Shown here: in pieces, positions 21,301 to 59,323 of the stretch
How positions within the stretch are numbered: the first letter of the stretch is position 1
How the letters are laid out: every line of letters starts with the position of its first letter
Assembly: GCA_023205875.1 (NCBI GenBank)
Contig: CP060756.1
Location: forward strand, 1,364,001 to 1,428,000
DNA: 64,000 nucleotides
Direction of reading: 5' to 3'
Source: Chloropicon primus
Taxonomy: Eukaryota
Made by a program: the position numbers and the translations under genes
The notes under the pieces: model-generated
Seen by the model: the letters and a program-made list of their open reading frames with translations, nothing else
The model's database searches: none
What the model was told of the DNA's origin: nothing

Positions 21301-24300
21301 AAGCCGTATCAACAGCTGCACAAGCTCCTTGCAAACCATATGTGAAGGACAGTCGCCCTGCAGAAACGCTAAGAGATGCTGAAGTAACTGCATACGATTC
21401 CATCTTCAAGCCCTGATATGACATTTCATTGGAAAACTCAATGTGTTGAATGCCAACCATCACACCCATCCTCTGTTTCTGATGCATCCAACTCGAGGAA
21501 GAATCGGATTCCATGCTGTGCAGAGCTTCATACGATACCTCGAGAAGAAGACGTTGGTGAGGATCCATCCAACACGCCTCAGAGCGAGATACGCCAAAAC
21601 ATGGTATATCGAAGAGCTCTATGCCGTCAAGGAAACCACCAAAACGGATTGGCACAATGGGCGCACCATCCTTGTAATCCTCATCAGCGTCCCAGCGCAT
21701 GTGTGGAACCCTCCAAATACTGTCCCCAGCATTGGAAGTCTGGCAAAGATTGTGTTCAGGAGTGGGTAACCGTGCCGCAAGACTCAACATATGAACACTC
21801 ACAGATCCTTCAGAGACTGTCCGAATGCCTGTCGATATTGCAGCAGAAGCCAAAGGCACCTGCTTCGGACCAAGCAAGGTCTCTGCGTATTCAATGATAG
21901 CATGAACGCTTGGATAGTCAAAGATCAGCATCCCAGGCAAATCAATACCAAGGCTCTGCTCAAGAGATGAACGCAATTCCATCGCACCAAGGGAATCAAG
22001 ACCTGCAGCCATCAATGGTTCATCGGGATTCGTATCATGACCCACGACAGCATGCACAGCTTCCTTGACCTTCTGCTGTAATACGTCCGCATCCATGCCA
22101 GAGGTTCCAGAGCTTTGTCTTGGCTCAATAAAACTCTCTGCGTATTCAATGATAGCATGAACGCTTGGATAGTCAAAGATCAGCATCCCAGGCAAATCAA
22201 TACCAAGGCTCTGCTCAAGAGATGAACGCAACTCCATCGCACCAAGGGAATCAAGACCTGCAGCCATCAATGGATCGTCTGGGCTCACCTCATGACCCAC
22301 GACAGCATGCACAGCATCCTTGACCTTCTGCTGTAATACGTCCGCATCCAAAGTCATGCCGGATGCAGCGCTGGCAGATGTGTTGGACATTCTTGTGGCA
22401 TCGATAGAAGAACCGTGACCATGAGATGCAGTGTCATGCATATTTGAGAATAGTGGAGGAACATGTGTCATGCGAGAGAGGAATCTATCCCACATGAAGC
22501 GCTGAACAGCAACTTGGGCGTGAGATGACCACATCGCATTGTCCAAGCAACCACCACCACCACAAACACGACCTGCAATACTCTCCAAGGCGAACAATCC
22601 TTCATACGGAGACAACATGTAAAGACCCAACTGCTCCATGCGCTTGGCATGCTTGACTGCCATGCCACCAGATGCCCAAGGACCCCACTGGACACTCACA
22701 GCACTCACGCCTGCATTCTGCCACATGTGAGCTTGGGCATCCAATACAGCATTGGCTGCAGCGTAATTGGTTTGTCCAGCTGATCCAAGCAAAGCAGCAA
22801 CAGAAGAGAAGAGAACTTGAGCACCCATGGCTTCCATTGCAAATGTCTTCGCCAGCTGATGCAAGCCCACAACCTTGGGAGCAAATACTTGCTTCACAGA
22901 TTGTGCTGTCTGGTTGCTGAGCACAGAATCAGCAAGGACTCCGCCAGCATGCATCACACCTTGTACGCCAAGACCTCCAAGCAAGTGACAATCTTCAGCA
23001 CAGGACACATCGCAATGCAGTATTTGCACCTCCGCACCGCAACTGTGACCACACAAACCCTTGCTCATGGACTTGATGTGACCAGTGCGACCCAACATCA
23101 ACACGCAATCGATTCCATGTTGAGTGAGATGCTGTCCTGTCAGCAGTCCAAGAGCACCAGTGCCTCCCGTCACAACCCATGATCCTGCCACGGAAGACAG
23201 TGACTGAGAAGAATGAGGGAAACATGGAACCATAGCTGCAGTCTCCACCATGCTCTGATCCACATATACACACCAGCCTCCGCCATTGTGAATCTCACTT
23301 AGAGGCAAACAAGACTCATCAACCTTATTGCTTGTGTCATGAGATCCAAAGTGCAGTGAGAGTGGATTGTACACCATTCAGAGCACAAGCTCGTAGAATG
23401 CCGTATATCATAGCATTTCCCTGGTCCCCGACAAAAGGTGCAGGAACACCACAAGAGGTGGATGTGGTCGATTTGGAAACCAACTTGAGGTCGCAAGAGC
23501 TCATTTGGTTGTATTTGTCCTGAAGGACAGCAATTGTACTCAGGGATAATGCCACAAGGGACGCAGGGTGATCGAGCAAGCACGATTTCTGCTCAACAAA
23601 AGAGTCAGCGTCTCCTCCGCTCCATACGTGGCATGAAGATGCACTCATGTCATCCAAGACTTGCGCAGAAGAGATCACAGGGCACACAGATTGCCATGAC
23701 AACGTGTACTGCACTTGCTCGGAGAGGTCCGCGGAGCTTCTCATACGGCTCAGCGGCACCGACAAGTCTTTCCTATGTAGAGTACCATTCAACTCCACCG
23801 CACCGAATCTTGACATCTCCGTACGACTGGACTTGCCACGGTTGGCCAAGCATAGCCAATCCCCGGCACTGGAATACGAAGATGTTCCCATCCTCATAGC
23901 ATCTGCGCCACAAGCAAGTCCACTGAGATGACTCCATTCACCAAGTCCCAAACACATTGCGAGATGAACAGGGTTCACCACGTATCCGTCTTCTGAGGAA
24001 ACCATCTCGTTGATGTTTGGCAACATGTATCCCAAATAGGTTGCGGAAGGACTGGCATTGCTGAGATCAGTATCAAAGACCCTCGTGTGCTTTTGCACAT
24101 CGTCTTCACTGTGATGATTTGTTGAGGGTGCCCACTGAGTTGTGCCTGCTAGACACGTTTTAGACTGAGAGGAACCTCCGCAGACTACACTAATCTCATT
24201 CTTCCTCTGCACTAGGACGTTCACAGTTTGCGACGTTGAATCATCCAGTACAATTGGTGCGGGCATGGTGAGATTGCGCATCACATATGAATCGGTCTTT

Positions 24301-39136: not shown

Positions 39137-39441
39137 GCCGATCTCCGTCGCGGGAGATTGTGACCCGAGTGGGGGCCAGCAGTTCGGCTCGAATGTCCTG
39201 AGAGGTTCAGACGCCTGGCACCGTGCGGCGAGGGCTCGCCCACTGTAAGTGAGGAGTTCGTGCACGTCCCCGGGAGTAGTCCGGGGGGCGGGCAACGATG
39301 AAAGCGAGATGGAACGCGACAGGCCGGCCACGGAGCATCGAACAGTTTCCGCTCTCCACGGTACATGGATCGTGAGCCCGAGGCGGTGACTCCAGAAGGA
39401 GCGCGTGGGCCCCCCAGTGCAGACGAGCCGAGCCCAAATCT
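39137..39441 (+). ncRNA. Signal recognition particle RNA (7SL), plant/green-algal type
   Basis: 5' Alu-domain-like GCCGATCTC...GAGATTGTGACCCGAGTGGGGGC resembles the plant 7SL start; helix 8 CGA-CAGG-CCG-gcca-CGG-AGCA-TCG; long-range pairings ttcggctcg/cgagccgag, caccg/cggtg, gggctcgc/gtgagccc; about 300 nt. Confidence 0.85.
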
Positions 39442-42400
39442 TGCTCCGTGAGACAATGGTTCGGTGAGAGACGTTAGTTATACAAGGGTCACAACGAGAT
39501 CGTAACGGCGGAGGACGGCGAGGAGGACGGCGAGGTGTGTGACCTGGCGGAGCTGGAGAGAGAAAGAGAGCCGCCGTAACGCCAGAGCCGCGAACGAGGC
39601 GGCCGACGAGTGGGGACGAGAAGACCACGACCAGAGAGAAAGCGATGAGTTACCTCCTGGAATACTACAGCCGCTGGTTGCCGACGAAGAAGAGGAGACT
39701 GACGAATACTGGGACGTCATGTGAAGAAGGGGCTGGTGGCGCCACCCCGGCCGCGGTTCTCCAGGGGGGTGGCGCCCAAGGATGGCGGGTGGCGCCCAAG
39801 GATTGTGGTGCCCAATGTCTCTGTCTTCACCCACTTGCAGGGCAGCGGGCAGCCGTGCGGCGCGGTGGCACTCGGAACAAGCCTGGACACCAACGCTTGC
39901 ACAGTGGCCCTGGCGATCTCCGCGGGACCTCATAGGGAGCGGGAGATGGCCGCCATCGAGGAGAACGTGGATCCGACGACGCTTCTCAATGCGGATGGAC
40001 TTCTTGCCTCTCTTCGCTTCGCAGACGACGAATCAGCTGGCCCGCGGCCCACCCTTGCACGCGAGGGTACACGGGCGGAGCGAACTCGCCAGCCTGAGGA
40101 GCTGACCCTGGTCCGCGTGGTCCGAGGCCGTGGCGGAGTCCACCTGGAGCGCGTTGAGGGCTTGAAAGAACTGACCCACTGCATCGTCTTCCTCCGCGAG
40201 TCCCTTGCGCAGGAGGGGCTTGGGAACAAGCTCGCTGGTCAGGCGGCCACGATCTCAAGCGCGTTGCTCGGCAAAGATCTTCCTAAACAGGTGAAAGCAT
40301 TTCGTTTCGTGGAGCTTGGGACCGCCAGCCGCTCGCGATGCCTCAAGGACCGCAAAGTTCTTACGAAAGCTCTTGCCCTTGCGAAGGAGAAGGGCGAGCC
40401 TTGCGCGCTTCTTGTAGCTGCCTTGTCGCGATTGTCGAGACGGTCACAAGCTGACGAGGACCTCGACTACCTTGCTGAGCGCGCAGGGCAGGCCTCTATA
40501 CTGGCGTGTATCCCGACGTCCCATGCAGCAGCTTTGATTGGGGAGGAAAAGAAAGAGGAGCTCAAAAAGTACATGAGCAAGGCTGCAAGCACCTCGGACG
40601 GGCACGCCGTGTACTCGGCGTCGCACTGCATGCTCAAGTCCGGCGCCACCCGTTGTTCTGTAGCATCGGGCCAACACACTTCTGAGGAACTTTGTCTCCT
40701 CGTCGAACACGTCGAGCACGTCCTGAGGCACAAGCTGGAGAATCTGGAGAAGCCGGGGGAGCAGAAGCACGGGAAACCCCTTCTCCTCGTAGGTATTGCC
40801 CGTACGTCGCCTGGAACTGACGTCGCCAAGTCTACTTCGATATATGTCCAACGGTGCCTACTCCTCCACGTCCTCCTCAAGGTGCGCGACAACCTTCAGA
40901 AGGATGTTGCGCTAAGCGGGAAGCTGCCGGTGATTGAAATCACAATTGGGACCTTTGCAGAGAAGTGTGGAGGCTCGACCTCGGAGGAGGCTGCCGTCCA
41001 AGAATGGGTGAAGAAGGTCTGCGACGAGGGCAAATACGCAGGAGGCGTTCTACTCTGCACCCGTGCAGATCGGCTTACAAGGGAGCTTGCGACGCTCGGG
41101 ACGCTCTTGGAAAGGTGCTGTAAGGCGAACATAGCAACGGTTGCGTGCTTGACAGAAGTGGATGCCGTCGTCACCGAGGAGAGACACGTTCAAGAGGCCG
41201 TAGCCCAGGTTCTCGCTGGAGATGAGGAGTATCTTCTTGGAAAGCGCTTTGTGGAGCAACGGGCGAGTGATCTCGTCCGCGCATGGAAGAACCAACCCAC
41301 AGTTCGTGTGCTCGTCGCTGCTTGTTCCATCACGGAAGCGAACTACGACATCATTCTTCGCGAGGAGCACATGGTGTTCCTGGAGACCTACAGGCAATAC
41401 TGCCACGTTCACTCCGTGAGGGACGAGTTGTTTGAAAACCGTGATGGACACGGCTTGGATGAAGACGCATTGAGCAGAGTCTTTGAGTACTTTGCGGATG
41501 CACTAAAGGGAGAACATGTCGATGTCGTGTTTGAGAATGAATGTTTCCCAAACACGGCGATCTCTGTGACTCAAAAAGATTTCTTCAAATGCTCCTGCGC
41601 TGATAAATGCTCTCGCAAGTCGTCCAGGACAACAGGCACCGCGAACACCGCTCCAGCACATACTCGATGCCTTTGTGCTTGTGACATGTGCAAGAGGACT
41701 CGTCCTTGCATTCTCTGGTGGACAGCGACGCCGAGGACGGCGGGGAGAGGGAGAGAGAGCTTCGCAAATTTGATGCCGCTGCATGTCCCTGTGAACGTTG
41801 CAGCAGCAGCCCCTTGAGCACTGGTACGACAAGGAAGACACAGGCCAAGACCAACACGAAAGGGAAGAGGAAGGCCAAAGCAAGGAAGCCGATGAAGGAG
41901 TTTCCTCGACTTCCTACTACAGACGGTACTCAAACCCTGCGCTGCATCTGCTGTGATTATCTTGGCCACGCTGAGTGCCCCTTGGTCAAAACAGGAGCTC
42001 TGACCCCGGTTCCTGGGGAGGAACGTGATCGAGCTGGGCACAATCCCAAGTTCCTCCTCTCGGACTGGTGCTGGTACTGCCATCGTTTCATATTCAAAAG
42101 CGGCTTTAACCAGTGGTGTTCGTTCGGATGCTTCTTGAAAGCCACGAAGTTCGTGGACAAGAAGGAGCTTTGGGACATGAGCAAGGAAATTGGCATGACA
42201 CAACTGAAGAACACGATTGGCTTCTGGTTTTGTGTTCCGTGTACAAAGAAACCTGAGTCCGAGAAAGCCTTGATCGAGAAGATCCCCTCGATCCCCTTGA
42301 TCCCAACCAACGGTTCAAAGGGCTTGAGGTGCTTGTCCTGCAGTCATAACGATTGCAAAATCGGCAAGGGGTACAAGGAGAACGCAGAAGGAGGCGGCGT

Positions 42401-42650
42401 GAACGTTGGCTCCGGCCGGCAGAAGTCCGAGAACAGAAAGGCCAAAGAGGTAGTGACCCCGCATCCAATGCTCGTCAACATGATGCTACAGGACTCCTAA
42501 GCCGATCCTAAAGACTATCCTAATCCTAATCCCCAAAAAGCAATCCTAAAGCTGAAATATTCTATCCTCCTCCACCACACTATGTATGTCTCCGTTGACC
42601 GCCGGCACATCGTTCGTTCGTTCGTTCGTTCCATCCTAAAAACGTCGTTC
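39442..42650 (+). mobile_element. Putative serine-recombinase-encoding mobile element immediately 3' of the SRP RNA; ends undefined
   Basis: Recombinase-like ORF that looks less GC-rich than flanking genes, short repeats at 39729-39812, degenerate CCTAA repeats at 42496-42642; no TIR or TSD identified. Confidence 0.45.
39946..42500 (+). CDS. Protein with two tandem serine-recombinase (resolvase/invertase-like) catalytic domains and a Cys-rich C-terminus; split into overlapping ORFs (39946-41817 and 41688-42500) by an apparent frameshift near 41710
   Basis: Domain 1: IVFLRES...LAGQ...DRKVLTKAL...LLVAALSRLSR. Domain 2: VGIARTS...SIYVQ...VLLCTRADRLTRELATL. Both fit the YxRvS...Q...DRLxR pattern. 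Tail has CxC/CxxC clusters. Confidence 0.7.
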
Positions 42651-43355
42651 AGGTGACCTTCCTTCCACGATCATGGAACTTCGCATCAACAAACGAAACT
42701 CGGGGAGAGACAAGATTCAGTGAGGGACTTGCAGAGTGTCTCCGCTGGACGCATCTCGCAATTCCAGCAGCAGCAGCAGCAGCAAGAAGAGGTGGCACCT
42801 GGCATCGATCGATCGATCGAGGAGCCCAGGTGGAGGGAGAACGAAGACCAACAGGAACAGGAACAGGCTTGTGACTTGTGGGGTGGCGTTGCGAACAACG
42901 GACGATCGGGCGGGAAGGGCGGGAGGGGGAGAGGGGGAGAGGGGGAGAGGGAGAGGGGTCACACCTTCACGCCGGTGGAGAGGCAAGGCGCGACCTTGGC
43001 ACGCAGCATGTGATAAAGTCTTGCTGAGCTGGGTGTGGCCTCTCTCTCTCTCGATCTGCTGGGACTACGAAAGACGTTTCTTTTCCAGGGAGGGGAATTA
43101 TGGGTCCTTCGATTGTACGATAGTCTCGTTTTTCAGATTAGATTAAGCTCTCGTCCGTCGATATTCCGGGCGTGTGAACAAAGATCCGATTCGCGTGAGA
43201 CCGTCGCACCCATCCCTGCACTCCTGCTGCGATACCATGCCACCAGCCTTGCCATACTCGCAGTTCATGTCCGTGACAAACTCATAGGTGCAAGGTGTGC
43301 GGCGGATGCACCGTTCCCCAAGCCAAAGGTGAAGACGGAGGCTCGAGAGCAAGGC

Positions 43356-44165
43356 ATCTCGCTCTGAGGCGTGTTGGATGGATCCTCACCAACGTCTTCT
43401 TCTCGAGGTATCGTATGAAGCTCTGCACAGCATGGAATCCGATTCTTCCTCGAGTTGGATGCATCAGAAACAGAGGATGGGTGTGATGGTGGGCATGTAC
43501 ACTCACTCAGCATGTTGAATACAGCAATATCTATGCTGGTTATGGCCATAAGTCTGAGGCTCATGCGGTTACGTCAGGTTCTTTGGGTGTTTCTGCAGGG
43601 CGACTGTCCTTCACATATGGTTTGCAAGGAGCTTGTGCAGCTGTTGATACGGCTTGTTCATCCTCTCTTGTCGCAGCACACATGTCCTACATGGGCCTTG
43701 TTCTTGGCGACGTCTCGAAGGGACTATATACACAATATGCACCGTGGCGTTCTCGGTCCTCTTGAAGATGGTTCCAAACAAGATACGGTGATGCTACGTG
43801 GCACTGCTGTGAACCAAGATGGGCGATCCAGTGCTTTGACCGCACCGCACGGACCCTCTCAACAGCAAGTGATGCGTATGAGCTTGCACTCGGCAGACCT
43901 TGATGCCTGGAGTGTACAGGTCTTGCAGATGCACGGTACAGGTACTCCTCTTGGTGACCCCATTGAGGTCGGTGCAGCATCTGCTGTGTTACTCTCCGAG
44001 GCCACCAAACGGGACTTCCCTGTCCACATGTCTGGAGTGAAGAGCAATATGGGGCATAGTGAAGCAGCAGCTGGTATGGCTGGTATGGTTCAGCTCGCAG
44101 GCAATCTGATGCATAAATCAGCTAGTGCCATCAGTCACTTGAGACATCTGAATCATCACATACTG
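43356..44165 (+). pseudogene. Inverted, detached fragment of a PKS KS domain
   Basis: Near-identical to the reverse complement of the KS of modules 4-7; about 10-bp frameshifting insertion near 43494-43504; about 140 bp (including AGMLAPDGRCK) replaced by about 21 bp of filler at 43726-43746. Confidence 0.93.
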
Positions 44166-44181
44166 TCAGTATGTGATGATT
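44151..44181. repeat. Perfect 15-bp inverted repeat (fold-back) with 1-nt spacer
   Basis: AATCATCACATACTG-T-CAGTATGTGATGATT. Confidence 0.95.
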
Positions 44182-59235: not shown

Positions 59236-59322
59236 GTTCGCGTGGTGTAGTCGGTTATCACGTTCGCCTCACAATGCTGAGAAGCTCGCGAAAGGTCCCC
59301 GGTTCGATTCCGGGCGTGAACA
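59236..59322 (+). tRNA. tRNA-Val(CAC) with a 13-nt intron (59274-59286)
   Basis: Acceptor GTTCGCG/CGTGAAC, D-arm GTGTAGTCGGTTATCAC, anticodon arm TTCGC-CT-CAC-A^C-GCGAA, T-arm GGTTCGATTCC. Confidence 0.92.
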
Positions 59323-59323
59323 C

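Follow-up and report, generated by a model that had tools for sequence, protein, structure and literature searches.

Serine recombinases act as four separate subunits, and in eukaryotes they have been reported almost only as IS607 transposases (PMC6188088, PMC3627910, PMC2715888). Here we describe a multicopy element of the tiny marine alga Chloropicon primus that encodes two serine recombinase-type domains in one chain. We analysed a 64-kb stretch of contig CP060756.1 (assembly GCA_023205875.1, positions 1,364,001-1,428,000), referred to as the window, in which the element lies at about 39440-42647. Judging from sequence, we give an even chance to the reading that this is an undescribed, recombinase-driven C. 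primus element of 3.2 kb whose joins are often completed by host repair, its catalysis being predicted. This reading is supported because the motif residues are conserved, the loci are multicopy and polymorphic, an empty allele exists, the catalytic part is conserved and the codon use is foreign. It is further supported because the tandem layout occurs in two distant relatives, no other transposase gene is present, and the expected donor arrangement exists on chromosome 9.

As in IS607/Fanzor2 elements (PMC6188088, PMC3627910, PMC10711439), a serine recombinase domain is the sole candidate transposase of a unit found in eukaryotes, and like IS607 the element shows no terminal inverted repeats and no target duplication, as read at one locus only. 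However an IS607 transposase consists of an N-terminal winged helix and one catalytic domain in about 200 amino acids, whereas the Chloropicon protein has 949-950 amino acids and no N-terminal helix-turn-helix (HTH) family was found in it. The element also differs from IS607 in having no TnpB/Fanzor gene. No TnpB, RuvC or OrfB family was found on either frame scanned, which bears out the initial annotation, made from the letters of the window alone, that a TnpB partner is missing. Further differences are the two catalytic domains, the Cys-rich tail and the lack of a match to NF033518, and in a tree the Chloropicon domains, on long branches, did not group with three IS607 rows. The Fanzor2 elements of C. 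primus itself have inverted repeats and target duplications and represent another family (PMC10711439). The nearest eukaryotic precedent without Fanzor is the family of Saccharomyces kluyveri (Rolland et al. 2009, PMC2715888), which is likewise multicopy in a unicellular eukaryote, species-specific and under purifying selection, with mobility unproven. In contrast to the Chloropicon protein, the yeast proteins are single-domain IS607-type enzymes with an N-terminal DNA-binding domain, and 5 of 6 yeast loci are fixed among strains (PMC2715888), compared with 4 of 12 strain-private loci in C. primus.

Unlike the large serine recombinases (integrases, TnpX, CcrA/B), the Chloropicon protein has no Recombinase or zinc-ribbon domain found in Pfam, and unlike the small resolvases and invertases of about 190 amino acids it has no C-terminal HTH that we could find. 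Any activity of the element would resemble that of serine recombinase transposons such as IS607 and Tn4451. A serine recombinase is likewise the sole enzyme of the transposons Tn4451 and Tn5397, which leave no target duplication; their enzymes TnpX and TndX are bacterial, have one catalytic domain and work with precise ends and a circular intermediate. CcrA and CcrB act as a heteromer. The two-enzyme arrangement closest to the element is the CcrA/CcrB operon of SCCmec, with which it shares two unlike serine recombinase domains in tandem on one mobile unit, but CcrA and CcrB are encoded by separate genes, carry Recombinase and zinc-ribbon domains and use a fixed attB, whereas the Chloropicon protein is one chain in which neither domain was found and its sites are dispersed (PMC12648241). 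The element is unlike Helitrons and Replitrons in that no HUH family and no hairpin were found and the 3' ends are ragged, A|TC being seen at the window junction only. Crypton transposition relies on a tyrosine recombinase, and these elements end in short direct repeats. Like Cryptons (named in PMC3627910), the element is a small single-gene eukaryotic unit with a prokaryotic-type site-specific recombinase and no terminal inverted repeats, but it shows serine-type motifs only.

The open frame at 39703-41817 carries all four motifs named in the initial annotation: FLRES (40189-40203), LSRLSR (40423-40440), GIARTS (40792-40809) and TRADRLTR (41059-41082). Pfam Resolvase (PF00239) was the sole family found on the whole frame and matched in two stretches (E 1.7e-10, 41.6 bits), so that the two resolvase-type domains claimed for one chain were recovered. 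When each half was searched alone, as had been proposed, domain 2 matched PF00239 at E 2.4e-6 (28.2 bits) and domain 1 at E 0.0015 (19.1 bits), below the curated cut-off of 23.3. Resolvase clusters of a language-model Atlas also matched the two-domain stretch (score 0.91, 170 of 256 features). A profile built from 33 bacterial serine recombinase domains, chosen by motif out of 54 loci, scored 22.6 bits on domain 2 and 12.8 bits on domain 1, and none of 2000 shuffles scored as high in either case. The best shuffle was 5.0 bits for domain 2; for domain 1 it already reached 11.2 bits, which makes domain 1 the weaker call.

Residue alignments used 27 of the 33 bacterial rows, and residues of both domains are numbered after gamma-delta resolvase. 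We found that domain 1 (40168-40626, plus strand; R-x-S, Q, E, R, S-R-x-x-R) retains equivalents of R8, S10, Q19, D/E36, R45, R68 and R71, with a serine at the D67 position, a change also present in 7 of the 27 bacterial rows. Domain 2 (40774-41292, plus strand; R-x-S, Q, E, D-R-x-x-R) retains R8, S10, Q19, E36, D67, R68 and R71 together with the E...R of a canonical last helix. Motif A (R-x-S) and motif C ((D/S)-R-x-x-R) are in register on both domains, which a linker of 50 residues separates, and each keeps the serine and three arginine equivalents; the alignments agree with the earlier claim that the nucleophile serine is kept in both. The bacterial rows' own motif counts of 27 of 27 are by construction, because the rows were chosen by these motifs, the independent test being Pfam. 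Cleavage through a phosphoserine link and strand exchange in a synapse of four active sites are predicted activities of either domain.

A model of domain 1 built with an alignment had a predicted local distance difference test score (pLDDT) of 76.8, and its 13 best fold matches were all serine recombinases (Z 8.1-11.6, next row 6.9), a TnpX domain among them, but the model is partly circular since 27 of its 31 alignment rows are bacterial recombinases. The single-sequence model of both domains (pLDDT 35.7) was too poor for fold comparison. Comparison of domain 1 with domain 2 gave no detectable similarity; a recent internal duplication was therefore rejected, and the domains are best regarded as an unlike pair. 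Sequence searches of solved structures with the whole protein, with each half and with alignment A1 returned no recombinase. In a tree of 38 rows, from which P0009 was omitted as too short, domain 1 (four rows) and domain 2 lay on very long branches without a supported neighbour.

The recombinase gene (39645-42500, plus strand) is a single frame of 949-950 amino acids in intact copies, P0016 and P0017 among them, and is broken at 39811 and 41712 in the window copy. We compared the window with four sequencing runs (X1, X3, X5 and X7) of 21 listed. Relative to other copies in contigs of X1, X3 and X5, the window copy has one extra base at 39811 and two extra bases at 41712. The break at 41712 is real because the X7 contig is identical to the window over 41600-43299; the frameshift at 39811 is provisional. 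The GC content at third codon positions was 0.64-0.68 in the recombinase gene versus 0.91-0.95 in three neighbouring host genes, and by this measure its codon use is foreign to the host. No other transposase, reverse transcriptase or HUH gene was found within the element when its frames were scanned with Pfam.

The Cys/His-rich basic tail (41590-42410, plus strand) contains the CxC and CxxC clusters reported in the initial annotation, which could not show that in the window copy the frameshift at 41712 splits the tail over two frames. By eye, one CxxC...WCSxxC motif of the tail resembles an FCS/TRASH finger; no family passed the cut-off there in Pfam, PHROGs or Atlas. Family scans of the N-terminus gave no HTH family, and by eye the basic stretch PTKKRR at 39681-39698 resembles a nuclear import signal. 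Neither the Recombinase nor the zinc-ribbon domain of Pfam was found, and weak XisF and integrase matches span the catalytic part alone.

An unfiltered search of 1.84 billion cluster representatives without length limit gave five hits, one C. primus cluster and four unnamed proteins. In the distant environmental relatives P0021, which lies on a 599-kb contig, and P0023 (33-38% identity for the two) domain 1 is followed, at the same distance, by the R-T-S-P start of domain 2, after which the frames diverge. The tandem layout thus begins alike, and the R-x-S, Q, E, R and R-x-x-R of domain 1 are kept in both. No relatives were found in Joint Genome Institute (JGI) metagenome contigs or in viral contigs, and none of domain 2 among proteins under 520 amino acids; a word search covered proteins up to about 1090 amino acids. 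A plasmid tblastn search gave 13 matches, all at E 3-10, of which 5 carry a recombinase annotation. A bacterial large serine recombinase (L092:1495-1959) has the same motif pair (YLRQS, LSRLSR) as domain 1 and P0009, and was not joined to them in the tree.

Close relatives of the protein are all C. primus gene models labelled 'hypothetical', the closest being P0003 (99% identical). The family corresponds to two C. primus-specific orthogroups, is absent from C. roscoffensis orthogroups, and comprises 13 models at 9 loci in one strain and 15 models at 11 loci in the other (PMC12301720 File S1). When the loci of the two strains are matched by locus number, they would amount to 12 across 9 chromosomes, with 8 common to both strains and 4 strain-private, the private loci being scored from gene models, where a missing model is not missing DNA. 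The copies are thus dispersed, with presence and absence between strains; they sit in unrelated neighbourhoods, an example being the intact, strain-private copy 02p16300, which has MED6 on one side and a conserved gene on the other. Deletions, truncations or frameshifts affect most of the loci. The depth of run X1 was about 750-1400 on the element's long contigs versus about 150 on the flanks. Relative to three single-copy contigs, it was about 9 for domain 1, 3.8 for domain 2 and 3.6 for the joint that removes domain 2; relative contig depth is no copy number, and the order of domain 1 above domain 2 fits the published locus lists. Two gene models, P0007 and P0008, fuse the element's 5' part to ferrochelatase and to a flavin adenine dinucleotide (FAD) oxidoreductase; these are partial copies or splice artefacts, and as possible gene-model splices they were excluded from the locus count.

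The initial annotation had proposed a eukaryotic mobile element, possibly undescribed, and this is consistent with the multicopy, strain-polymorphic loci and with our finding no description in the searchable literature. Neither outcome that it had named beforehand as contrary, the lack of a resolvase match or a single-copy syntenic orthologue, was encountered. The words resolvase and recombinase are absent from the main text of both genome papers, as far as that text was available. We found neither the element family nor a natural two-domain serine recombinase described in the open full-text literature, with subscription journals, Repbase and bioRxiv supplements outside reach; the family is apparently undescribed.

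A derivative subfamily, seen in X1 and X5, lacks 440 bp (40789-41228, plus strand; joint 40788->41229), with 3 nt of shared letters at the joint and a frameshift. The deletion takes out domain 2 almost exactly and is carried by four loci. Translation across the joint yields the C-terminus of P0010, P0012, P0013 and P0024, which explains the split gene models. To assess variation, 13 gene models, some of them the same locus in two strains, were compared with P0017. Variable columns numbered 1 of 173 in domain 2, a count lowered by the fewer models that cover this domain (mean 5.6 versus 8-10). For domain 1 the count was 11 of 152, for the N-terminus 27 of 174 and for the tail 54 of 309. In a partial list of at least 36 coding base changes, the catalytic 1.1 kb accounted for 2, neither of which alters the protein; of the 34 listed changes outside it 3 were synonymous versus 8.0 expected (p 0.024). 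This suggests purifying selection on the catalytic part, and perhaps diversifying change in the tail.

At the chromosome-3 site the element starts 5 nt past the host signal recognition particle (SRP, 7SL) RNA gene (39137-39434, plus strand; Rfam Plant_SRP, 125.3 bits, E 2.2e-35, model 1-305). The left junction of the window copy (39439-39440) is marked by a depth step and by the joint 39439->43158 of an allele without the element, which was found in three of the four runs (X1, X3 and X5, from three studies); X7 has the filled right part. X1 has no filled left junction, since its contig is unbroken at 39439. In strain CCMP1205 the published gene order on chromosome 3 is citrate synthase, kinase, tubulin-tyrosine ligase, pyroglutamyl peptidase and then polyketide synthase (PKS) fragments (PMC6731263 Supplementary Data 2, 3), and the absence of the element from this order agrees with the empty allele of the runs. 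Downstream of the SRP RNA gene no run of four T occurs before 42228, about 2.8 kb on; the terminator normally present there is therefore probably missing from the filled allele, which suggests that this allele is the derived one. Transcription by polymerase III may continue from the SRP RNA gene into the element, or the 3' end of the SRP RNA may be altered.

To the right of the element is a low-copy spacer of about 510 bp (42650-43157) that arrived with the window copy and lies within the X7 contig 41600-43299, which has 0 differences. The spacer is also present in X1 (contig 42962-43159, 0 differences) and probably comes from another locus, because X1 lacks the filled left junction; at that locus it would precede the repeat that also opens the right flank here. 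The right flank (43158-44173, plus strand), present in both alleles, consists of a 198-bp repeat and a rearranged fragment of the giant PKS gene of 1-32309, and the pieces of this fragment (43356-44173) are 84-100% identical to that gene. A donor layout of the element followed by a PKS fragment was predicted beforehand and then found at the chromosome-9 copy, where a ketoacyl-synthase fragment is the next model (PMC6731263 data). The private chromosome-16 copy adjoins a PKS-fragment cluster, by locus number, and the neighbours of two chromosome-2 copies are not PKS fragments. Besides the window, such fragments are found on chromosomes 9 and 16, and runs X3 and X5 contain some with different ends; they may be the element's cargo or its landing pads. 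At the right end of the window's PKS fragment, 44151-44181 form a perfect 15-bp inverted repeat with a 1-nt loop.

The element body (39440-42647, plus strand) is defined by a depth step and has no terminal repeats. The limits first given for it, 39442-42650, very nearly coincide with those of the high-copy stretch, which runs from 39440 to about 42630-42650. Three X1 contigs carry loose other letters before 39439 (median 20 letters), and because other copies differ there, the family as a whole may extend a few tens of bases beyond the left junction of the window copy. The right end is ragged (42611-42647, plus strand), with a (GTTC)n run followed at 42635-42642 by CCTAAAAA, the telomere unit given in PMC6731263; other copies exit at 42629, 42632, 42637 and 42647, as loose ends and joints. 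No hairpin was found at the element ends (z 0.0 and 0.3). Subterminal direct repeats and a GG crossover were not seen at the window locus, whose junctions show damage and whose copy may stop short of the family's true left end. In the part of the PMC6731263 table available, with cells to 400 characters, the element's end motifs were not found among heterozygous indels. Joints 42632->44563 and 43060->44627 and a MIR156 match were set aside as simple-repeat matches. The 5' leader of other copies has a short tandem duplication or a 29-bp deletion at 39470-39529. Near the right end, 42496-42642 contain five CCTAA words in 150 bp, including the one full telomere unit, and the consensus to the left of other copies ends in CCTAACC; the CCTAA words may be chance or may reflect telomerase healing.

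Several observations weigh against a recombinase-driven element. The junctions at the chromosome-3 site are not those of a clean recombinase insertion. One junction pair was read, at this locus, and in place of reproducible ends and a precise empty site it is imprecise: no terminal repeats, target duplication or crossover dinucleotide could be named there, 229 letters foreign to the window lie between 39439 and 43158 in X1, X3 and X5 (from record lengths), and 510 bp of extra flank were carried along. Across four other copies the right ends differ by as much as 18 nt, and the joints listed for the four runs include no end-to-end (circle) joint. Domain 2 has no equivalent of R45, an arginine in 26 of 27 bacterial rows, or of Y6, and the last helix of domain 1 is divergent. 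The thinner model coverage of domain 2 and the partial base-change list temper the signal of conservation. The copies are also mosaic: at 8 loci, 435 of 780 informative column pairs show all four combinations, a signal to which assembly chimeras could add, and such pairs rise with distance (13 of 84, 109 of 204, 313 of 492). Host gene conversion is therefore active, and alone could explain the window copy and the four domain-2-deletion loci.

If conversion is given the whole task, the gene would be a horizontally acquired recombinase that is retained because it serves the host or has some other use. Ectopic gene conversion and repair between dispersed repeats would then spread it passively, with the enzyme uninvolved. 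We consider this unlikely. It would account for the mosaic copies, the homology on one side of the window insertion, the place of the private chromosome-16 copy at a PKS-fragment cluster (by locus number) and the 8 of 12 loci common to both strains; moreover intact copies appear to be transcribed, with values of 38-60 (PMC6731263 Supplementary Data 2, read as RNA-seq depth via a Data 3 column), and the yeast serine recombinase copies are selected but mostly immobile (Rolland et al., PMC2715888). Runs X3 and X5, which may be RNA, were not counted as evidence of expression. However the unit has a common left limit in unrelated neighbourhoods, and most loci are decayed with none in the C. roscoffensis orthogroups, which is the profile of a selfish element and not of a host gene. 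Quite improbable, in our view, is that the element is a passenger of other machinery, either retroposition of its transcript by a long interspersed nuclear element (LINE) or rolling-circle copying of the Helitron or Replitron type. Helitron 5' ends read A|TC, as does the window junction, but the consensus of other copies has C and not A before TC, and there is no hairpin at either end and no fixed CTRR end. The limits match a transcription unit, the ragged 3' end finishes in a (GTTC)n run, 3' flank was carried along and one copy stops at 40868, all as a passenger might show; against this reading, there is no poly(A) and no target duplication at the window locus. The conserved catalytic residues would be left unexplained.

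A further alternative concerns the enzyme and is compatible with a recombinase-driven element: cutting would be the work of domain 2 alone, with domain 1 as its partner in a structural or regulatory role, and a synapse would still require four chains. The full D-R-x-x-R, the canonical last helix and the higher scores all belong to domain 2, it is the least variable part, and the derivative that spread lacks exactly this domain. We nevertheless find the alternative doubtful, as the R-x-S, Q, E, R and R-x-x-R residues of domain 1 are present in the window protein, P0021 and P0023, the D-to-S change of this domain occurs in 7 of 27 bacterial rows, and the domain has an arginine that is absent from domain 2.

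Under the recombinase-driven reading, the enzyme would start the element's spread by cutting DNA, and host repair would probably finish many of the joins. The intact 950-amino-acid protein would enter the nucleus, and its Cys-rich tail would bind the element ends, a task that falls to the HTH or Recombinase domain in bacterial enzymes. With domains 1 and 2 paired inside a single chain, two chains rather than four would give the four active sites of the synapse and an asymmetric site could be cut. For the window copy, a break just behind the SRP RNA gene may have been repaired from a locus with the element before the same PKS-fragment repeat. The right side would have been joined through homology, the join near the left end of the element would have been non-homologous, and 229 bp of target would have been lost. 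Copying would have covered 3.7 kb and then stopped within a few tens of bases of where the family ends, which hints that a cut or a bound protein was present there. We tentatively propose, at somewhat under even confidence, that the family represents a new superfamily of eukaryotic DNA transposons, a serine counterpart of Cryptons independent of IS607/Fanzor. Its transposase would be a single-chain heterodimer of two unlike active sites, directed to DNA by a zinc-binding tail that changes fast. The superfamily would be active in present-day Chloropicon strains and would have distant relatives among other organisms of the sea.

If this is true, a natural two-domain chain would reveal how subunits joined by a covalent tether can still pair and rotate, and each half-site would be addressable separately, which is the aim of heterodimeric recombinase engineering. 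It would also add a recombinase class to the catalogue of eukaryotic transposons. If the enzyme makes breaks only and host repair fills them in, a serine recombinase would here play the part of a homing nuclease. The alga is culturable, and two published telomere-to-telomere assemblies, intact 950-amino-acid copies and four strain-private loci are available for study.

Elsewhere in the window, ARAGORN calls an 88-nt tRNA-Cys with anticodon ACA at 59236-59323, an unusual and possibly false or intron-containing call. The giant type I PKS occupies 1-32309 on the minus strand, with modules 96-99% identical over kilobases. Its two frames overlap near 23340-23377 and its GC is low, and the gene is already listed in PMC6731263.

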